Source of the DNA: an uncultured virus (IMG/VR IMGVR_UViG_3300025150_000005)
Taxonomy: Duplodnaviria > Heunggongvirae > Uroviricota > Caudoviricetes
Virus record (IMG/VR): IMGVR_UViG_3300025150_000005
Reading direction: 5' to 3' (one strand)
Length of the DNA: 20,000 bases
Shown one piece after another: positions 4,696-13,688 of the stretch (positions within the stretch are counted from its first letter, which is position 1; each line of letters begins with the position of its first letter). A program made the position numbers and the translations under genes. Below the pieces are notes generated by a model, which worked only from the letters and a program-made list of their open reading frames with translations, had not been told where the DNA came from and did no database searches.

Positions 4696-5046
4696 CTAGG
4701 TGGCATCGGCCTTCGGTTCGGCGCCACCTAGCAGCCTGTACTCCACCGAACGCCCCTCGCGCTCCGCACGCAGGATCCCCACTGTCATCCCCGGCGACAC
4801 CCCGCGATCCGCGTAGACCACAGTGGCCTCGGCCTTCGCCCCCCAGGCCAACCCTGCTTCGATGCCCAGCATGCGCTCTGTACGCACCTTGTCGTCCAGG
4901 ACGAGCGGGTACAGCGCGTGGGACGCGAACGGTGCCTCACCACGAGCGAGGCAATCTCGCATCGCTTGCTTGAGGTACTCGAAGTTCGCTTCCCAGGCCT
5001 CTGGCGTGACGCCTGCGAACGGTGATTCGATCAGTACCAGTCTCAT
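4696..5046 (-). CDS. Nucleoside 2-deoxyribosyltransferase-like fold phage protein (DUF4406/DUF7768-like)
   Basis: MRLVLIESPFAG...RGEAPFASHALY...LDD...ER..GI.AGLAW...VY.DRGVS.GM matches a common phage family pattern; GGAG upstream of ATG 5046. Confidence 0.7.
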   Translation of the reverse strand: MRLVLIESPFAGVTPEAWEANFEYLKQAMRDCLARGEAPFASHALYPLVLDDKVRTERMLGIEAGLAWGAKAEATVVYADRGVSPGMTVGILRAEREGRSVEYRLLGGAEPKADAT

Positions 5047-5614
5047 GTCGTACTGCTCCGTCAGACCTGGAGTCCCAGGGCTTGCGCGCGGGGTTGGAGG
5101 ATGTCGTAGGAGACCCGCCGGGTCCACGCTGCGTCCATGAGCGCGTTGTGGGCGACGTGCTCGTCCAGCTTCGGGAACTGTCGAACCCCCAGCAGGTCGC
5201 TGAGCTGCTTGATGTCCTTTGTGTGCATCGGCATCCCCTCAGGCAGCTTGGCCATCGTCCCGAACAGCCAGCAGAGCATGACGTGGTCGTAGGCCGCGTA
5301 GTAGCCCCACAACTCGGTATGCACGCGCTCGGATGGTCCGATGAAGCGAAGCACCGCGTCGCGGATCTCCCGGCACGTCATCCACGTGGGGTCGTCAGGG
5401 TCGGGCAGCTTCTGGAGCACGTTCTGCCGCACCCAGCCGTTTGCCAGAGAGAAGTCGGCTTCGCGGTTGCAGCAGTGTAGGTCCGCTCGACCATTCGCGT
5501 TGACCATGTCGATCGAGATCAGTTCCAACCTTGGCTATCCGGTTGCCTCAGAATCGGCCCGGCCGGCCAGGATCCTGGGATCCAGACCGGCCCCAGCTTC
5601 TCCCACGCGACCCC

Positions 5615-5875
5615 CTACCCGATGGTCACCCGGAAGCTGGCGACACCGCCCTTCTCGGGGACTTCCACGTCGACTCGACGGGCTCGGAAGTTCCAGACCG
5701 TCTGTCGCCCATGCAGATACGCGATCTCGAACCGATCCGATACGGTGCCACTCTTGTCGTACAGCGCGACTTCCAGAGTTCCACGCTTCATCTCCACGCG
5801 GACCTTAGAGGGGTCAGGGCCGCGTACCACTTCAATGATCCCACCATCCTCGCGTAGTCGGTAACTCGTATTCAT
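5615..5875 (-). CDS. IS passenger protein (86 aa, beta-rich hypothetical)
   Basis: GAGG 6 nt upstream of ATG 5875; MNTSYRLREDGGIIEVVRG...VASFRVTIG. Confidence 0.55.
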   Translation of the reverse strand: MNTSYRLREDGGIIEVVRGPDPSKVRVEMKRGTLEVALYDKSGTVSDRFEIAYLHGRQTVWNFRARRVDVEVPEKGGVASFRVTIG

Positions 5876-5907
5876 GTTGTCCTCGATGATGGTTTCCTGA
5901 GAGACGT

Positions 5908-6165
5908 TTAGCGTCTCGTCAGAATCAGTCTGCCGGGCAACCACAACCGCCACCTCGACGGGCCGCGAACGGCCAAGCTGAGGCGCACTGGACCCTTGTC
6001 AGAGCGGCCACGATCCACTATGGTCGTGACTGGCTTGGGCGCTCTGATTCGACCAGTGCGCACACCCGAAGCCGCTTGGGCTGCAATCCCGAGCGGCTTC
6101 AACTTTTCTACGGTAGTCGTTCGACGGATCGTAATCCAACCGTTTTCGACGCATTCGATAGGCAC
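5908..6165 (-). CDS. Possible IS passenger ORF (85 aa, basic)
   Basis: GTG start 17 nt after the transposase stop; no recognisable motif. Confidence 0.3.
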   Translation of the reverse strand: MPIECVENGWITIRRTTTVEKLKPLGIAAQAASGVRTGRIRAPKPVTTIVDRGRSDKGPVRLSLAVRGPSRWRLWLPGRLILTRR

Positions 6166-6182
6166 CTACAAACGTAGGTCCC

Positions 6183-6550
6183 TCAGTCCTCGACGAACCC
6201 GAACCTCATCAGGTCTTCGGGCAACACGCTGGTCCAGCCACCACCCGGGTTCTCCCTCACAGGCGCTGTGCCGTCGTAGTGACCTCGATACGTCACGGCG
6301 TCCGCCCCCGTCCCGATCTGTAGCAGCGTGCAGAACGACCGCATCCGGGCGAAGCGCCGATTGAAGCGGAAGACGTACTCGTTGAGGTACTCCTGAAGGT
6401 GCTTCTTCCGCACGGCCCCGTGGTACGTGCCCAGGATCCATGCCTTCAGGTTTGAGATCACGAGGTGAACCAGTGGCACCCAACTCTCGATGGTCACCTT
6501 GTCCTTCCTCGTGACGAGCCACTCGTGAACGAATCCAAACTCTGGCGAGC
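6183..6550 (-). pseudogene. IS1595-family transposase, C-terminal remnant
   Basis: VPLVHLVISNLKAWILGTYHGAVRKKHLQEYLNEYVFRFNRR is the typical IS1595 C-terminal motif. The frame is closed by a TGA near 6553; the Zn-finger, HTH and first catalytic aspartates are missing. Confidence 0.85.
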
Positions 6551-6904
6551 TTCAAGCGAGGCCCGGCGGAAGTTGCCGCTTCATCACTGGATGCAGGATT
6601 ACCCTACAGGGGGTTTCGGGAGGTGCTGCGAGTCCACATGCAGTCGTCGAGGTCGCACGAGTCGACCAGCCCGAGTGAGGTCGAGGCGTAGGCGCGATTA
6701 CAGTCGGGTAAGACATTCTGCGCGCAGTTGGCCTAGTTTACCGAGGCTATCGAGGGTACACTGGTCGAAGTGAATCCCGGGACCCGGATCTGCGTGTGCG
6801 CCAGTGTGGGCTGGGGGTCATTCTGAGGCAACCGGATAGCCAAGGTTCCAACTGCCCTGGGGCTTCCATGAACTCGGTGTCGTAGAAGAATCGGCGCGTT
6901 GGCT

Positions 6905-7021
6905 TCATGTGAACAACTCCTTCAGGAACGCTGGCACCTGTCGCCAGACAGTCGGGCTGACCAGACAGCTCAACAGGAAGCGCCACTGGTCGAGGTAGTC
7001 GAGGATCGCGTCAGTGCGCAT
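6905..7021 (-). CDS. Small hypothetical protein (38 aa)
   Basis: MRTDAILDYLDQWRFLLSCLVSPTVWRQVPAFLKELFT*; its stop overlaps the exonuclease start (ATGA). Confidence 0.45.
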   Translation of the reverse strand: MRTDAILDYLDQWRFLLSCLVSPTVWRQVPAFLKELFT

Positions 7022-7301
7022 TGGTGCCGCCATGCGGCTCGCAGGCACGCTCGACGACGTGTGCGAGCGCGTAGATACCCGCGATGATGCCGAGCGTGTG
7101 TCCCATAGTAGGCAGTGCCTGCGTGGTCTTACCACAAGGGCAGACAATCTCACCGCAGGGCAGGCTGTTCGGGATCGTCTCGATCGTGAGTGTCGCCGCG
7201 AACTGCGCACAGTGTGGACAGCGCACGGGATTGAGGGTCAACTTGACGGTCTCGGCCATCGTACGGCCAGCGAGGTTGTCGGGGCGGTCTGCCACTTTCA
7301 C
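7011..7301 (-). CDS. Small zinc-ribbon-like protein
   Basis: CPHC...CPC motifs; GTG start overlaps the polymerase stop (GTGA) with GGGGAG upstream. Confidence 0.6.
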   Translation of the reverse strand: MKVADRPDNLAGRTMAETVKLTLNPVRCPHCAQFAATLTIETIPNSLPCGEIVCPCGKTTQALPTMGHTLGIIAGIYALAHVVERACEPHGGTNAH

Positions 7302-10300
7302 ACCTCCCCCCAATGTCTACCGATCTTGGAATCAATCGGGAAGCTCCACTCTCCCTCGATCCCTGCGAACTTGTACCGTCCAGGCATCTCCTGATGCAGC
7401 AGGGCCTGCATCGCCTGCGCGTTCGCCTCTGGGACCTCGTACACGAGGCTGTCGTGAACCTGGGCCACCAGCCGTGCGCCGAGCGCACGACTCGGCGCGT
7501 CCAGGCGAATCAGCGCTGCGTTCGTGATGTCTGCACCGCCACTCTGGATGGGATAGTTTGCGGCATCCGTGATGGCGAAGTCGACGCCGCTCCAGTAGCG
7601 ACGACGTCCCATAATCGGGCTCTCCAGCCACCCGTACCCGTGCTGCAGCTTGCGCTTGAAGTAGAGGTCGTAGTTCTTGTGCGCCACCTGCGTGATCTCG
7701 GGGTTGACCTCGCGCCACCCGCGCAACAGCGCCGAGACCTCGCCGAGCTGAAGCCCTGGGAAGTCCCGCAGAAGCACCGCCCAGATGGTCGCGTCTGAGC
7801 CCTCGTAGTTCGCGTTGTAGACGAAGCGCTTGGCCTGCACTCGCAGCTGCACGAGCTTGGTCCAAAGCGTCTCGGTCGCAGCCTGCGCGATCGTTGCGCA
7901 GTGTGGGCAGTAGTCCAGGTGAAACTCAGCCCAGATCGCGCCGTCGCCCTTCCCCTTGTCGAACAGGCGCACACGCTCCGAGCCCCAGGGCACCGTCGCC
8001 GGCCTGGTCAGCTGCTCCGGCGTCATCTGATCCTTCGTGATGATCCGGAACCATGCGTGACCCTCGTCGAGGGTCCCGGTGTGCGCAGCGCAGCGGGCCC
8101 TCGCCGCTTCGGCCATCTTCGCCTGGAAGTCGAGCTTGAAGAGCAGCTCGGCGTTCTTCCGGTGCACGTCCGATGACTTGAGCGCCCGGAGCAGGTTCAC
8201 GGCCCCTGTGTAGATCGCGACGATCCACAGCTCCAGCGCCGAGTAGTCCGCGCCGACGAGCACGTACCCGTCCTCCGCGATGTACATGGCGCGGAGCCAC
8301 TTCGGGATGGTCTGCAGGCCGGGGTCTTCGCAGGAGTACCGCCCCGACACTGTCCCGTACTGCTTCCAGATCGCACGCACGCGGCCATCTGCGCCGACGC
8401 GCAGGTTCTCGACGAAGGTCGATCGCGCCTTCTCGGCGCCACGCAGCCCCAACAGCCCTGCGCCATCGCTGGTTGCGTCGAACGCACTCCCGATGAAGGC
8501 ACGTCCCGCGTCGTCGAGAAAGGGAAGTTGCTGGATGAGGTCGTCCTCGGCCGTCGAATGCTGCGTCCCCTTCTCGGTCATCGGCGTCCGAATCTGGAAC
8601 AGATCCAGAGTCGCCATCATGTGACCAGGCCGCCCGGGGCGATAGAACTGGCGCAGGAACGACTCGTCGTCGGGGTAGGTCAACAACACGAGGTTGCGGA
8701 TCTTGGTCAGGAGACCCGGGCTGTCGACCACACCAGCCGCCGCCTCGGCCTTGCTCGACCCGAGCACCTCCCCGGACACCCGGACGACGTAGCCACCCTT
8801 CACACGAATCAGCACGTCAAAACGAAGCCCGAGGTCGATTACCTCCTTCGGAGGGAGCAATGCCTGCTTGAAAATCAGGGCCCGGTCGGGGTAATCTGCC
8901 ATCTCAGTGAGCAATGCTTCGATCAGCTCATCCGTACACCGACGCTCGACGTCGGCGAACTTCTCCAGGAAGGTTTCACGCTTGTCCGCGTCGAGGCGGA
9001 AGCCGATGCACGTCATCGCGACGATGATGCGCTGACCTGCCATCGACTGCTCGTAGAGCGGCATCAGCCCATCCGCTGCCAAGACCTTGCGCATGATCGC
9101 CATGAGCGGTGTGGTCTGGTGGACGTCGTAGGCGTTGTAGAGCCACAGCTGACGATCGTCCTGCACGGTCAGGCCGTGTGTGCCATCGCCAAGCCCCTTC
9201 CACGACGGACAGTCCAACGCGACCGACGCGCAGAACGCCAGGGAGTGTGGCAGCTCGCTCTCGATGAGGTGGTGCGCGAGGAGCGTATCGTCACACGGGT
9301 CGAGCACCTGGATGTCGTTGGACTCCAGGCTGCCCCGGTCGTAGGCGCCCTGGTGGGCACCCTTCCTGATCTTCGGGTGCGCGAACACACGCCTGACGAT
9401 CTGCCACGTCGCGCCGTCGAGGATCGACTCGCCCGCGATGGTGCAGACCGGGACCACGACGACGGTGTTGGGCGCCCACCCCATCGATAGCACGCGAAGC
9501 TGCGCATACACAGGGTGTAGGCCGTCGGTCTCGACGTCGTACCCCATGTCGATCTCGGGGCCGTCCGTTTCCAAGCGACGGTCAGCCTCGGCGAGCAGGC
9601 GGAGCAACGCCTCGCACACGGTGCGTGGCTGGTAGATCGGTTCGGGGTCAGTCCAGAAAAAGCCCTCCCGGTGAATCCGCACAGCCTTCGCGACCCACAG
9701 CGCGAATGCCTCCCGGTACTTCTCCATGCCACGCATGATGGCGGCCGGGTGCACGGTCGCGAGGGCCATCCGCTTCCCGTCCGCGAACGGGATGGGGAAG
9801 CCCTGCTCGGCCATGATCCCCTCGCGCCCTGTGATCGCCTTCAGGGCCACCTTGCCCAAGAGCAAGTAGAACTTGGCACGGGCCACGTCGCGAATCAGCC
9901 GCGGGCGGCAGCACTCGATTGGCGTGAGGATCGGATCGGTGTCGGGCGGCTGGGCGGGGAGCGCAAGCAGCGCGGGCTCCGGTGGGATCGCGACCTCAGC
10001 CGGCATCTTGGGCGGCGGGACCGCCTGATAGACGGTCGTCTCCCACGTGGGAATCTCGATCTCAGGTGACAGCGGCGGGTCGATGAGCGGTCGATCCTCT
10101 TTCTCAGCCCGCTCCTGGAGGCGCTTGCGCTCCCGCTCCCACACCGCGATGTCGCGAGCGTGCTCCTTCGTCGCCTTCGCGTACACCTTCTCGCGGTTGA
10201 GCCGCTCCTTCGCGACGCTCTTCTCCCAGCGCTCCCACGCCTTGGCGAACTTGTCCCTCCAGGTCGTGTCGCGCCGCGTGATGGCCTTCTCGCGCTTCGC

Positions 10301-10678
10301 CACTGCGCTCTCGAACGCACGCTGGATCTTCGCGACCGCGACCTCCCACTGGCGCAATGTGCGGGCACGGATCCGATTCTGCGCCTTGATCTCTTTGAGG
10401 AAGGCACCCAGGTCACCATCGCCGGGGGGGCGACAGAGCATCACGTTCGTCGCACGGCAGGCGTGGCGTGGGAGCCCGCTGTTTGCCAGGGCGCGGTTGA
10501 GCATCTGCCCAGAGGCGCCCACGAGAGGACGCCCCTGTTCGACCTCGTTGTAACCCGGCGCCTCGGCGACGATCACGAAGTCCGCATCGCGTGGCCCGTC
10601 CATCGGGACAGGCTGACAGCCCTTGAGAGGGCACTCGTCGCATCGCGCGCCGTGGTCGCGTGGATCGTACGTGCTCAT
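7298..10678 (-). CDS. polA: Family A DNA polymerase with N-terminal family 4-like uracil-DNA glycosylase domain and 3'-5' exonuclease
   Basis: UDG motifs: CDECPL, AEAPG, GRPLVGASG, TNVMLCRPP, HPAAIMR. Exonuclease motifs: YDVET, HQGAYD, YNAYD. Polymerase motifs: TVSGRYS, ADYSALE (A), RVQAKRFVYNANY (B), NYPIQSG, QVHDS (C). Confidence 0.95.
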   Translation of the reverse strand: MSTYDPRDHGARCDECPLKGCQPVPMDGPRDADFVIVAEAPGYNEVEQGRPLVGASGQMLNRALANSGLPRHACRATNVMLCRPPGDGDLGAFLKEIKAQNRIRARTLRQWEVAVAKIQRAFESAVAKREKAITRRDTTWRDKFAKAWERWEKSVAKERLNREKVYAKATKEHARDIAVWERERKRLQERAEKEDRPLIDPPLSPEIEIPTWETTVYQAVPPPKMPAEVAIPPEPALLALPAQPPDTDPILTPIECCRPRLIRDVARAKFYLLLGKVALKAITGREGIMAEQGFPIPFADGKRMALATVHPAAIMRGMEKYREAFALWVAKAVRIHREGFFWTDPEPIYQPRTVCEALLRLLAEADRRLETDGPEIDMGYDVETDGLHPVYAQLRVLSMGWAPNTVVVVPVCTIAGESILDGATWQIVRRVFAHPKIRKGAHQGAYDRGSLESNDIQVLDPCDDTLLAHHLIESELPHSLAFCASVALDCPSWKGLGDGTHGLTVQDDRQLWLYNAYDVHQTTPLMAIMRKVLAADGLMPLYEQSMAGQRIIVAMTCIGFRLDADKRETFLEKFADVERRCTDELIEALLTEMADYPDRALIFKQALLPPKEVIDLGLRFDVLIRVKGGYVVRVSGEVLGSSKAEAAAGVVDSPGLLTKIRNLVLLTYPDDESFLRQFYRPGRPGHMMATLDLFQIRTPMTEKGTQHSTAEDDLIQQLPFLDDAGRAFIGSAFDATSDGAGLLGLRGAEKARSTFVENLRVGADGRVRAIWKQYGTVSGRYSCEDPGLQTIPKWLRAMYIAEDGYVLVGADYSALELWIVAIYTGAVNLLRALKSSDVHRKNAELLFKLDFQAKMAEAARARCAAHTGTLDEGHAWFRIITKDQMTPEQLTRPATVPWGSERVRLFDKGKGDGAIWAEFHLDYCPHCATIAQAATETLWTKLVQLRVQAKRFVYNANYEGSDATIWAVLLRDFPGLQLGEVSALLRGWREVNPEITQVAHKNYDLYFKRKLQHGYGWLESPIMGRRRYWSGVDFAITDAANYPIQSGGADITNAALIRLDAPSRALGARLVAQVHDSLVYEVPEANAQAMQALLHQEMPGRYKFAGIEGEWSFPIDSKIGRHWGEV

Positions 10679-10926
10679 CGTAGGTGCTTCGGCTTCCAGT
10701 CCTCGACGTGCTTGATCGCAGCGCTGCGTAGCTCGTGGTAGGTGGTGAGCGCAGCACCCGCTTCGGGTCCAGACTCCCTGGCTTCACGGAAGTCCCTGTG
10801 GGCTGCGTGGATGGCGGCCTGCATGTCCCACGGGACCTTGGCCCAGCAATACCTGCACATCATGTAGTCAACGGAACACCGCCGAACACACGTGCTACAG
10901 GAGCAGGCTCGCATCTCCTTGGCCAT
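10675..10926 (-). CDS. Small Cys-rich phage protein
   Basis: CSCSTC...MMCRYCWAKVP; its stop overlaps the polymerase ATG (ATGA). Confidence 0.7.
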   Translation of the reverse strand: MAKEMRACSCSTCVRRCSVDYMMCRYCWAKVPWDMQAAIHAAHRDFREARESGPEAGAALTTYHELRSAAIKHVEDWKPKHLR

Positions 10927-10931
10927 CAGGA

Positions 10932-11189
10932 TCAGATCTCCTCGCGCTGGGCCTTGGTCTGCTCGGCGAGAGCCTTGAGTCGTTCATCCCGAACCGCGTC
11001 CTCTGCGTCGAGGGCTGCGTGCGCCCGCCGAATGCCCTCGGACCGCGTGAACCCGCACAGGGTGCAGGTCGCCTCGTTGCCGTCCCACACGACAGTGGTC
11101 ATCAGGATGCCCGGGGGTGAGTGAAGCGGACAGAACCACGCCTTCACCGGAGCCTGATCGAGCGCTGCCATCACATCGTCCTGCTTCAT
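10932..11189 (-). CDS. Small zinc-binding hypothetical protein
   Basis: ATG 11189 overlaps the HNH stop (ATGA) with GGAAGGAAG upstream; CPLH...CTLC. Confidence 0.7.
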   Translation of the reverse strand: MKQDDVMAALDQAPVKAWFCPLHSPPGILMTTVVWDGNEATCTLCGFTRSEGIRRAHAALDAEDAVRDERLKALAEQTKAQREEI

Positions 11190-11776
11190 GTGTCTTCCTT
11201 CCACGTGCGGTTTGCCAGGATGTCCCGAACCGTTGCGACGCTCACCCCATACTGGCCTGCGAGGTACTTGGGGTCGCGGTTGTAACGTGCGTGGTCGCGG
11301 AGCTGCGCGACCCGCGTCACGTCCAACTTGGTGCCCCCGTAGCGCACACGACCATTGCGATGAGCGTCGGCACGATTCTGGCTGTGTGTGCCGTAAGCCA
11401 AGTTCTGGTGCGAGCAGTTTTCTTTTTGATCGTCGAGGTGGCGTACGACCTGCCCTACGGGCTGAGGTCCGATGAAGGTCACGGCGACGATGGTGTGGAG
11501 CCGCCAGCGAACCCACTTGAACCCGTCGTAGACGTTGAGTTGCGGGTAGCCCCACTTGTCGAGCGTCGGGTAAAGCGGCCGGGGCTCTCGCAGGACACGC
11601 CCCCGAGAGCGGTACGTCCGCACCTTGCCATCAGGGTGCGCCTCGTAGTGCGGGAGCCCAGGGACGCCACGCCAAGCAAGGTGCATTAGCAGCGCGTCGA
11701 ACAAATCCACTGGCACTTCGACCCGAGGGCCAAAACTGTCAGCGCGCAGTGCCTGGAGCTTGTCGACGAGCGTCAT
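11186..11776 (-). CDS. NUMOD4-HNH endonuclease with C-terminal HTH
   Basis: WRGVPGLPHYEAHPDGKVR (NUMOD4); LHTIVAVTFIG...VRHLDDQKENCSHQNLAYGTHSQN (HNH); LAGQYGVSVATVRDILANRTW (HTH). Confidence 0.9.
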   Translation of the reverse strand: MTLVDKLQALRADSFGPRVEVPVDLFDALLMHLAWRGVPGLPHYEAHPDGKVRTYRSRGRVLREPRPLYPTLDKWGYPQLNVYDGFKWVRWRLHTIVAVTFIGPQPVGQVVRHLDDQKENCSHQNLAYGTHSQNRADAHRNGRVRYGGTKLDVTRVAQLRDHARYNRDPKYLAGQYGVSVATVRDILANRTWKEDT

Positions 11777-11889
11777 CACGTACAGGTGCCCTGAGCGTTG
11801 AGAAAAGCGGCGGAGGTGGGGAAACCCCACAAGGTGACCAGGAGGTGTGCGAGACCGAGAAATCGCCTCCCCCGAGGGGCTCCGCCATA

Positions 11890-11944: not shown

Positions 11945-12565
11945 TCAGGCGTCCGCGGGGATCTCGCCGTCGCCGCTGGGCGGCGGCGTGGCGTCCTTGA
12001 GCGACTGGCCGATGCCGTTGCGCACCTTGATCTGCTCGTAGGTGTAGCAGTTCTCGATGTCACCCTTGCGGATGGTCTTCGTCTCGGGCTTGCCGTCGGC
12101 GCCCAGCTTGGGCTGCTTGGTGACCTTGTCCTTGACGACGAAGGTGTCGTCGTAGACCTTGATGTAGCCCCAGGTCTTGCGGCCCTTCCACGTGTCGGGC
12201 TCGACCGTCATCGTGCGCTTGCCGGCGCTGTCGCGGGCGCCCAGGTCGATGCCGATGCCGATGAGGAAGTCGCGCATGCGCATCTTCTGCATGTTCGGCA
12301 TGATCTTCTCGTACTCGACCTCCTTCTCGGGGGGGATCGACATGAAGAACAGCCGCGCCGTGCCAGGGCACGGGGCCCCAGCCGCGTCCGTGAGCACCTT
12401 GCAGCTGATCTGCCAGTTGGTGCAGCCGGGGTAGTTGGCGTTGTCGGTGACCTGGATGTTGGTCACTTCCATGAGGTAGTCACCGGACTTCTCCGGCGGT
12501 GCGAAAGACCCCTCGCGCCCCTTCTGGGCGTCCTCCGGGGTCCCGTAGTTCATCACGTAGGGCAT
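11945..12565 (-). CDS. Probable single-stranded DNA-binding protein (DUF669-like OB fold)
   Basis: Strong RBS GGAGAAGGA before ATG 12565; F-x-P-x(4)-GDY-x-x-x-V opening; acidic/Pro tail; near-complete GC3 bias; lies in the nuclease-AAA-polymerase module. Confidence 0.65.
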   Translation of the reverse strand: MPYVMNYGTPEDAQKGREGSFAPPEKSGDYLMEVTNIQVTDNANYPGCTNWQISCKVLTDAAGAPCPGTARLFFMSIPPEKEVEYEKIMPNMQKMRMRDFLIGIGIDLGARDSAGKRTMTVEPDTWKGRKTWGYIKVYDDTFVVKDKVTKQPKLGADGKPETKTIRKGDIENCYTYEQIKVRNGIGQSLKDATPPPSGDGEIPADA

Positions 12566-12653
12566 CGTCTTCCTTCTCCACGAAGAGCGCACGGAGGTCG
12601 TCTCCGAGCGCAGGTTGGGCGAGGGGGGCTTCGCCGCCCCTCGCGACTTGATT

Positions 12654-13688
12654 TCAGCGACGGATCGGAGTCCAGGGTGGATCGACTGGCACCCCGATCA
12701 CGCACAGGTAGGGCGGCTGGACGGCCTTCGACACGACCCCACCGGGCAAGCAAGGCGCGTCTTCCGGCGCGAGGTGCACCTGCAGCACACGATACCCCCA
12801 GCGCCCCTCAAGCGCGTCCACGAAGTACGCGGAGGCACCCTTTAGGAGCCGCCCCGCGATGTAGGAGTACGGGTGGTCGCGCCGAAGCGGTTCCCAGTCA
12901 CCCCCGTTCCGACGCGTCTGCACGATGAACCGATCCCCAATCATCCAGATCAGGTGGACCTCCGGTTCAGGGGGGCCCATGTGCATGTAGCGCGAACGCG
13001 TGTCGCCCCGATCCACATACGGGACCTCGCTGAGCTGCGCGTACCAGCACCCGACGCAGCTGGGCAGATCCACGGCGGGCCGGATATCATCGGGTACACG
13101 CGTGATCTCGTCGATGTGCTCCTCGACGTCGATGCCAACCGCATCCGGTGCGTATACGAGCGACTCGTCGATGAACTCCCGCGCGCCGCAGTGCGCTGAA
13201 GCTGCATCGAAAATGCGTTCTTCAGCAGGTAGCGCGTCGATCACATCATTGGCGCTTTTTCGGAGGAAGCGCTCCAACGATGGGCTCGCGGAGTCGAGGC
13301 GACCAGAGCCCCAGATACGGGGCAGGCAGCTCTCGACCGAGTGAGGCCTGAACTTCGAGACGCCGAGTAGCGAACGACCCTTGTCGGGTGTCAGATCGTC
13401 GACTGCGGCCTGACGATCAGCTGCACACCACTCCGCTAGGCTCGGCGCAGGTACATCAGACTGCGTACGCGCGTCTCGGCGCTGAGCCGCAGCCTTCACA
13501 TCTGCAACCAGTGCGGCGCGTTCCGCCCGGATTGCCCGCAGATCCTCTAACCGCGATGCTGGATCAACGCCGGCGCAATCCTCATAGTCCTGGGCGCTGC
13601 TGGTGCTGGACGGCGCCTGACGCAGCCCCAGTCGCACGAGGAGGCGGCCCCACCAACGCTGCAAACGACTCCACATACGTAGCCCCAT
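12654..13688 (-). CDS. Hypothetical protein
   Basis: 344-aa ORF filling the gap between the AAA ATPase and SSB-like genes; no family recognised. Confidence 0.65.
   Translation of the reverse strand: MGLRMWSRLQRWWGRLLVRLGLRQAPSSTSSAQDYEDCAGVDPASRLEDLRAIRAERAALVADVKAAAQRRDARTQSDVPAPSLAEWCAADRQAAVDDLTPDKGRSLLGVSKFRPHSVESCLPRIWGSGRLDSASPSLERFLRKSANDVIDALPAEERIFDAASAHCGAREFIDESLVYAPDAVGIDVEEHIDEITRVPDDIRPAVDLPSCVGCWYAQLSEVPYVDRGDTRSRYMHMGPPEPEVHLIWMIGDRFIVQTRRNGGDWEPLRRDHPYSYIAGRLLKGASAYFVDALEGRWGYRVLQVHLAPEDAPCLPGGVVSKAVQPPYLCVIGVPVDPPWTPIRR

Follow-up and report, generated by a model that had tools for sequence, protein, structure and literature searches.

A predicted alpha-helix/proline-rich stalk between the iron-sulfur ligands of a phage uracil-DNA glycosylase-DNA polymerase fusion

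In uracil-DNA glycosylases (UDGs) of family 4, the third and fourth cysteine ligands of the iron-sulfur (Fe-S) cluster are joined by a short loop, which raises the question of what a phage replicase might do with a far longer one. Such a loop is found in the uncultured caudoviricete record IMGVR_UViG_3300025150_000005, of which a stretch of 20,000 nucleotides (the window) was analysed. An open reading frame (ORF) on its minus strand encodes a protein of 1126 aa, in which a family-4 UDG domain is fused to a 3'-5' exonuclease and a family A DNA polymerase (PolA). Based on AlphaFold2 (AF2) models, the insert in the UDG domain is probably a monomeric two-armed rod of about 16 nm, made of one long helix and a proline-rich return arm. 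The best explanation overall, to which we attach a probability of roughly 0.5, is that of a rigid rod clamped by the Fe-S cluster, whose basic ridge would act as a DNA-holding outrigger. The gene and the parts of it that concern the insert are the following.

7298..10678, minus strand: whole gene, UDG-exonuclease-PolA (ORF, Pfam, PHROGs)
10433..10678, minus strand: N-terminal half of the UDG domain, aa 1-82, with Cys13-x2-Cys16, motif A AEAPG (aa 38-42), PLVG (aa 51-54), Asn78 and the predicted third ligand Cys82
10412..10432, minus strand: cap RPPGDGD, aa 83-89, from Cys82 to the helix
10100..10411, minus strand: predicted helix arm, aa 90-193, 104 aa, about 156 A (AF2)
10091..10099, minus strand: predicted tip or turn EDR, aa 194-196 (AF2 and sequence)
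9914..10090, minus strand: proline-rich return arm, aa 197-255, 59 aa, 17 Pro, net charge -8 (AF2 and sequence)
9644..9913, minus strand: C-terminal half of the UDG domain, aa 256-345, with Cys256/Cys257 (predicted fourth ligand), CCRPRL and motif B His310-Pro311

The insert between the cluster cysteines

The N-terminal domain matches the UDG superfamily profile PF03167 (Pfam; 62.9 bits for a cut-off of 24.3) in two separate stretches. Cysteines occur within the first 340 aa at positions 13, 16, 21, 74, 82, 256 and 257. Every one of 41 aligned homologues has C82 (in CRPP) and C257 (in CCRPRL), and conservation reaches at least 90% for C13, C16 and C256; the C-x2-C ... C ... C pattern of a putative [4Fe-4S] cluster can be assigned to C13, C16, C82 and C256/257. 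The family-4 UDG of T. thermophilus (1ui0) aligns with aa 12-86, and the alignment with UdgX is split in two (aa 20-80 and 249-326), which indicates that the insert is skipped. Motif A reads AEAPG, that is, GE(A/G)PG with the first G replaced by A, motif B reads H310-P311-A-A, and residues E39, N78 and H310 are all retained. By profile, fold, cysteine and motif tests, the protein is thus a family-4 UDG-PolA, with putative glycosylase activity and a putative bound metal.

A first-pass annotation of this DNA had pointed to about 170 residues between the third and fourth cluster cysteines, which it described as normally spaced by about 15. The count is 173 from C82 to C256 (cluster-cysteine distance 174-175), compared with 16-18 in ordinary enzymes, and the spacing of ~14-18 residues expected of family 4 is not found in this protein. 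The proposed normal value is also close to that of 223 homologues, in which the commonest distance, counted to the invariant second Cys of the pair, is 18 and the lower limit 14-16. Translation of window positions 9914-10425 gives aa 85-255, which is exactly the loop.

The annotated layout of a helix followed by a proline-rich arm was borne out with small corrections. After the cap comes a Pro-free run of 111 aa (aa 86-196), then 59 aa with 17 Pro, of which the first is P197. The length of the Pro-free run is on its own modestly unusual (matched by 258 of 5000 shuffles), and the proline enrichment that follows is strong (17 Pro in 60 aa, odds ratio 8.0, p=1e-8). The return arm ends in the family motif L-T-P-I-E directly before the two cysteines. 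The G+C content at third codon positions (GC3) is 0.87 in the insert and 0.85 in the whole gene, indicating that the insert is coded like the rest of the gene.

Two other explanations of the insert were rejected. An intein or other mobile insertion is contradicted by the lack of any intein or endonuclease family in Pfam, by the GC3, and by a nearest homologue with the same loop length. A frameshift or assembly artefact is contradicted by the continuous ORF, in which both UDG halves share one frame, and by the independent contig L007, which is 100% identical in the 3' part of the gene. This metagenome contig (3442 bases) is 100% identical to window positions ~4940-8816, which comprise the polymerase C-terminus and downstream genes, so that the element was assembled independently at least once. 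No tandem repeats were found in the DNA.

Predicted structure of the stalk

The AF2 model of aa 1-345, built on an alignment of 41 homologues, has a mean predicted local distance difference test score (pLDDT) of 93.4 and a predicted template modelling score (pTM) of 0.72. By Foldseek, its core matches UdgX as well as family-4 UDGs (E 3e-10 to 9e-8, target template modelling score 0.65-0.77). Within the insert, aa 90-193 are modelled as a single unbroken helix, and the return arm as non-helical save for one turn at aa 216-219, with pLDDT values of 85-91 by block. When the stalk was modelled by itself (aa 78-262, 13 sequences), the pLDDT was 89.5, with helix and Pro arm as in the core-containing model, and the prediction is therefore independent of the UDG core. 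The annotated architecture is thus reproduced with and without the core, and a disordered insert or a helix doubled back along its own length, two of the outcomes that had been considered contrary to it, is not what the models show.

That the two arms form a hairpin is suggested by the cluster ligands at both ends, by a confidently predicted extended chain that needs a packing partner, and by the best structural alignments of the stalk model, which span both arms. The best of these by VIA-align, with 4ke2_A, covers model residues 15-176 (160 aligned, Z 6.8, root-mean-square deviation 5.0). At 1.5 A per residue, the 104-residue helix measures 156 A, and a return of 59 residues must advance at least 2.6 A per residue, which requires a nearly fully extended arm. 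In such a model, the prolines would pack on the helix aromatics and the rod would be rigid.

The helix itself carries a well-defined pattern. The regularly spaced W/F/Y residues already remarked upon in the annotation (F93, W111, F122, W140, F144, W148, W151, Y166 and W180) fall on one helical face, with a period of 3.64 and an R value of 0.92 that none of 1000 permutations attained. Taken together, the large hydrophobic residues repeat best at a period of 3.61 (R(3.6)=0.58, R(3.5)=0.05), so that this protein lacks the heptad signal by which a left-handed coiled coil would be recognised. Lysines and arginines occupy the side facing away from the hydrophobic stripe (phase -165 degrees, permutation p=0.003); 21 K/R and 3 D/E are found on the outer third of the helix. 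The net charge of aa 90-196 is +14. With 11 i,i+4 E-K pairs in 107 residues, this charge and a hydrophobic stripe, the segment does not have the make-up of an ER/K single helix. The same disposition was observed elsewhere in the family: in 13 of 13 helices examined in the long-stalk clade described below, K/R are found across from the hydrophobic face (permutation p<0.02 in nine), and in 92 of 111 distinct helices of mid-length loops they are more than 120 degrees away from it. A weak internal repeat was also detected (aa 104-139 against 144-180, offset ~40, score 47; shuffles: mean 31.2, sd 4.8, max 46), which hints at helix growth by duplication.

A long amphipathic helix could also pair with that of a second polymerase, in which case the replicase would be dimeric and the Pro arm a loose tether. 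R(3.5) equals or slightly exceeds R(3.6) in 5 of the 17 members of the clade, and straight or right-handed helical bundles can have periods of 3.6-3.67 as well. The near-absence of R(3.5) in the present protein argues against such pairing, as do monomer models that place the Pro arm with confidence and a return arm without slack, which a free tether would not need. A dimeric replicase of this kind appears highly improbable.

Relatives, loop lengths and origin

The Cys3 and Cys4 positions were located by two anchor hidden Markov models in 222 of 231 proteins and by hand in one more; the nine unlocated proteins include four fragments without the domain. The Cys3-Cys4 distance in the resulting 223 homologues ranges from 14 to 212, with modes at 18 (38 proteins), 36-38 and 42-58 and, separated from these by a gap, values of 129-212. 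One protein, P0133 (1154 aa), has 360 residues between these cysteines and was left out of the length distribution. Its extra sequence begins at Cys3 with an intein-like C-V-D-G, and it is placed on the tree among enzymes with 15-residue loops; both features point to an intein lodged at the Fe-S ligand.

Loops of at least 25 residues follow a shared plan, in which a basic, Pro-free helix starting with D-L-x-x-F-L is followed by a Pro strand ending in [LI]-P-[TSD]-P-[ILMV]-[ED]-C-C. In mid-length loops the helix takes 20-32 aa and the Pro strand 5-17 aa. Long stalks, with loops of 129-212 aa, are known from 17 members (13 proteins and four metagenome loci), and their identity to the stalk of the present protein is 18-59%. 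A tree based on post-insert sequence, with 79 rows (the 13 long-stalk proteins, P0133 and 65 others sampled by loop length), groups the 13 long-stalk proteins in one clade (FastTree 100; IQ-TREE LG+C20 SH-aLRT 100). Their nearest neighbours in the FastTree tree have loops of 28-47 residues. The long rod thus has a single origin, in a loop of middle length. The long stalk is thus, on sequence grounds, an overgrown form of the basic-helix-plus-Pro loop common in the UDG-PolA family.

Conservation within the clade is uneven. The ligands Cys13/16 are present in 11 of 11 proteins (two sequences being truncated at the N-terminus), Cys82 and Cys257 in 13 of 13, and His310-Pro311 is kept in 13 of 13. 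By contrast, only 4 of 11 proteins have an intact motif A, and Asn78 is present in only 5 of 13, although all are kept in this protein. The annotated retention of the UDG Asn and His thus holds for N78 and H310 here, but for the Asn it does not extend across the clade. Such decay of the glycosylase motifs alongside retained Fe-S ligands suggests that the UDG domain has been re-used in this clade as a structural socket for the rod.

Cultured phages yielded no close relative (best match 29.9% identity over aa 13-533), and none of the 211 matching records covers 80% of the protein. No relative was found in the genomes of GTDB representative species, and none of six IMG/VR loci had a long stalk. 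Among proteins shorter than 619 aa, none matched aa 60-300 at E<=0.001, that is, no stand-alone UDG or small protein with the stalk was detected.

Arm lengths were compared after splitting each loop at its proline change-point, the simpler first-Pro rule failing for P0064 and P0157. In loops of at least 25 residues (n=156), the Pro arm equals 0.520 (+/-0.020) times the helix arm minus 3.0 (r=0.90), the ratio expected of a hairpin being 1.5/3.1 = 0.48. For loops of 25-70 residues the slope is 0.32 (r=0.50, n=139). Within the long clade, the ratio of Pro arm to helix arm lies between 0.40 and 0.60 in 13 of 17 members, with a median of 0.49. In our reading, the return arm would be held near the minimum length that spans the helix, without slack, which fits a taut hairpin.

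Comparison with known systems

Family-4 UDGs and UdgX (1UI0, 1VK2, 4ZBX, 6AIL) share with this protein the core fold, the four cluster cysteines, motif A AEAPG and motif B HPAA. They differ in having a loop of ~16 residues instead of 173 and in not being fused to a replicase, and across the long-stalk clade the catalytic motifs degenerate, with the cysteines retained.

Fusions of UDG and PolA are known from SPO1-like, N4-like (cluster 17) and SP15-like phages, the last including phiLo (9QHS) and YerA41 (PMC10201439, PMC13697223); the first-pass annotation had named the SPO1-like ones. In the solved UDG-PolAs, the UDG domain sits between fingers and exonuclease, the 5' template strand reaches a positive patch on the UDG, and DNA is held more tightly by other large inserts (PMC13697223); in predicted models of further UDG-PolAs, the UDG domain has the same position (PMC10201439). 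The present protein has the same UDG-exonuclease-PolA order. SP15-like enzymes are recognised by Insert 1, Insert 2, an extended C-terminal domain and clustering with phiLo and YerA41. Our protein matches the phiLo UDG-PolA (9qhs) only weakly (E 1e-6 over aa 32-88; Foldseek E 1e-3), and phiLo falls outside its best 60 full-length matches. The catalytic residues of the UDG are lost in the N4-like cluster 17. E39, N78 and H310 are kept here, and no N4-like phage occurs among the best 30 tblastn matches.

Insertions in family A polymerases include the thioredoxin-binding domain of T7, the thumb-tip insertion of phiKMV (60-70 A) and Inserts 1 and 2 of the SP15-like enzymes (PMC10201439, PMC13697223). 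Like the stalk, they are lineage-specific and structured, and are thought to add DNA contacts or processivity. They are, however, globular or beta-rich and located in the thumb, exonuclease or fingers, in contrast to an alpha/Pro hairpin in a UDG domain, and the predicted rod (~160 A) is more than twice as long.

An architectural parallel, also invoked in the annotation, is the streptococcal antigen I/II (AgI/II), in which an A-region alpha-helix is intertwined with a P-region polyproline II (PPII) helix to form a fibrillar stalk (PMC4048849). A long helix paired with a Pro-rich extended arm is predicted here too, at a length ratio of ~2:1. There is no sequence relation (Pfam finds only UDG, exonuclease and PolA) and there are no tandem A or P repeats in the present insert; the AgI/II stalk exceeds 50 nm and is closed by a globular V domain, whereas the rod is predicted to measure 16 nm, with its ends closed by an Fe-S cluster, and would be intracellular and carried by an enzyme. 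No AgI/II chain appeared among the best 50 structural matches to the stalk model. In view of the missing homology and repeats, the stalk is not considered a member of the AgI/II family. A smaller counterpart is the pancreatic-polypeptide (PP) fold, a minimal PPII/alpha hairpin with a PPII strand packed on an alpha-helix. The mid-length loops of the UDG-PolA family resemble it, but in the present protein the helix comes first, the ends would be tied by a metal cluster and the hairpin is five-fold longer.

Broader searches did not reveal a counterpart of the stalk. The stalk-only model had no Foldseek match in the PDB, and the best 50 matches of a VIA-align search of 48,161 chains were all of a generic kind (helical hairpins, fusion cores and coiled coils), with Z values of at most 6.8. 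BFVD viral models gave no match (best E 2.3), and a search of the ESM Atlas with aa 83-255 gave no usable one. The literature searched describes no alpha/Pro stalk on a UDG-PolA or any other polymerase, although the search did not extend to supplementary alignments, which could show shorter loops. In the searched portion of PMC13697223, there is no mention of an Fe-S, 4Fe-4S or iron-sulfur cluster, of cysteine, of family 4 or of proline, and that of PMC10201439 mentions neither iron-sulfur/Fe-S, nor cysteine, nor a stalk on the UDG domain. While UDG-PolA fusions and the alpha/PPII stalk of AgI/II are each known, their combination is thus undescribed in the literature searched.

Proposed role of the stalk

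The preferred explanation may be outlined as follows. A loop presumably clamped by [4Fe-4S] at Cys82 and Cys256/257 would have grown from 16-18 to 173 residues, with a PPII-like return arm (29% Pro) lying along the aromatic/aliphatic stripe of the helix. With both ends tied by the cluster, the rod would be a rigid projection at the UDG domain's Fe-S corner. Its outward ridge of ~21 Lys/Arg would bind a polyanion, most likely DNA, which could be a duplex close by or the single-stranded template on its way past the UDG domain. In that case, the rod would serve as a built-in outrigger or guide rail adding affinity or processivity. Since the outward K/R stripe is kept across the clade while the glycosylase motifs decay, a nucleic-acid-binding outrigger is the simplest interpretation, and 21 charges distributed over 156 A amount to one every ~7 A, which is near the distance between phosphates in extended single-stranded DNA. 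Taken as a claim in itself, the function of the stalk as a DNA arm is put forward tentatively. A more detailed version is doubtful: that the 16-nm Lys/Arg rail holds ~25 nt of single-stranded template (or runs along ~45 bp of duplex) and leads it past the UDG site to the polymerase, replacing a contact with a clamp or single-strand-binding protein (SSB), and that its length sets a fixed distance in the replisome.

Insertions in family A polymerases (the T7 thioredoxin-binding domain, Pol gamma AID, the phiKMV thumb tip and the SP15-like inserts) have each explained processivity or partner binding. If the proposed structure is correct, the rod would represent a new architecture, in which a metal-cluster-clamped loop of a fused repair domain bears a continuous basic ridge and reaches more than twice the length of known inserts, and alpha/PPII stalks would for the first time extend beyond bacterial surface adhesins. 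The natural series of loops of 18, ~36, ~58 and 130-212 residues offers ready length variants, and a rigid, monomeric spacer tunable from 5 to 16 nm might be of use in protein engineering.

Weighing of the evidence

Several points speak against the DNA-holding rod. A straight rod cannot follow a DNA groove. Contact between Pro arm and aromatic stripe is deduced from pLDDT, DSSP and alignment ranges; AF2 is known for confident long helices in charged low-complexity sequence, and the stalk prediction was informed by 13-17 sequences only. The proline periodicity of the return arm is weak and not significant (best period 2.95, power 1.35 for an expected value of 1). As to arm lengths, the regression line over the 156 loops is largely set by two length classes. 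The ratio departs from one half in P0065 (0.21), P0201 (0.33), P0064 (0.36) and P0061 (0.97); three of these four outliers have prolines or Gly-rich breaks in the Pro-poor arm, and P0061 has ~50 extra Pro-poor residues in the return arm. Over all 17 rows of the long clade, the slope of 0.49 +/- 0.40 is not significant; leaving out P0061, P0064 and P0065, it is 0.59 +/- 0.19 (p=0.009, n=14), the rows being related to one another. Finally, of 46 sister pairs, 29 differ in the helix arm, and among these the Pro arm changed in the same direction in 5, remained unchanged in 4 and changed in the opposite direction in 20. A shifted boundary at equal total length forces a negative sign, which makes this test noisy, though it lends no support to co-variation. 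The expectation that the two arms vary together, raised with the initial annotation, thus stands between length classes and, once three outliers are dropped, within the long clade, but not among sister pairs.

The lack of coordinated change in sister pairs is what would be expected if the insert had no specific role and were a tolerated loop expansion, with a charged single helix and a floppy Pro linker drifting in length. The loop is indeed a hot spot, as judged from its range of lengths among the homologues and from the intein at Cys3 in one protein; the stalk sequence is poorly conserved, and the weak internal helix repeat would fit such growth. Yet a three-stripe design (hydrophobic, flanks, basic) persists despite this drift in all 13 long-clade helices and in 92 of the 111 mid-length ones, the arm ratio remains near 0.5 in 13 of 17 members, and the Pro arm is modelled at high pLDDT. 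The E/K i,i+4 pairs are sparse and the charge is +14, unlike in neutral ER/K helices. Functionless expansion is accordingly regarded as quite unlikely.

Domain organization and genomic neighbourhood

The remainder of the gene encodes the replicative domains, the order within one chain being N-terminal UDG, 3'-5' exonuclease and PolA. Pfam detects DNA_pol_A_exo1 at aa 373-533 and DNA_pol_A with 124.8 bits, and the 1126-aa protein matches phrog_17, phage DNA polymerase, in PHROGs (E 4.6e-73).

9080..9562, minus strand: 3'-5' exonuclease domain, aa 373-533, with D381, E383, D447, Y514 and D518 invariant within the clade
7301..8641, minus strand: polymerase domain, ~aa 680-1126, with D811, K950, Y958 and H1075-D1076 invariant

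The gene lies in a phage-type replication/recombination module that includes an SNF2-type helicase, a PD-(D/E)XK nuclease, a Sak4-like AAA_24 ATPase and an HNH endonuclease; a DinG-like helicase is encoded nearby on the other strand. The order SNF2-type helicase, PD-(D/E)XK nuclease, Sak4-like AAA_24 ATPase, 215-aa protein and polymerase recurs in three metagenome loci (L008, L010 and L011). The 215-aa protein (11945-12592, minus strand) adjoins the Sak4-like ATPase in these syntenic loci, with 29-30% identity, and has an acidic end; it might, as a guess, be a single-strand-binding partner.

This conserved setting bears on a different use of the same rigid rod, in which the basic ridge would be a docking rail or spacer for proteins, receiving acidic tails of an SSB or helicase or keeping a partner 16 nm away. 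In T7, basic patches of the polymerase bind the acidic tails of its helicase and SSB, and the neighbouring 215-aa protein ends in an acidic stretch. That protein, however, has no Pfam or PHROG match, which leaves its identity as an SSB a guess, and ~21 K/R along 16 nm far exceed the charge that a short acidic tail needs. Protein docking is therefore an unlikely, though not negligible, function of the stalk.

Thymidine-modification or dUTP-handling genes were not found by Pfam among the 20 ORFs scanned. The three syntenic loci lack the HNH gene as well as a 344-aa and an 83-aa ORF. The HNH endonuclease (phrog_59; HNH_3 and NUMOD4; 11186-11830, minus strand) and the 344-aa ORF (12654-13688, minus strand), both recorded in our analysis as lying between polymerase and 215-aa protein, have the appearance of mobile insertions in the module. 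The 83-aa ORF (10675-10926, minus strand) is Cys-rich, ends 4 bases inside the region of the polymerase start codon and has no Pfam or PHROG match. Downstream of the polymerase, 4696-5127 and 5061-5528 (both minus strand) encode a DUF7768 protein (93.9 bits) and a protein with an Rv2179c-like 3'-5' exoribonuclease domain.

Within the polymerase domain, a clade-specific stretch of ~80 aa between motifs A and B (aa ~864-927; window ~7900-8090, minus strand) carries a C-x2-H ... C-x2-C pattern, in which C924 and C927 are at least 90% conserved among 11 sequences; it may represent a zinc-binding insertion in the fingers.

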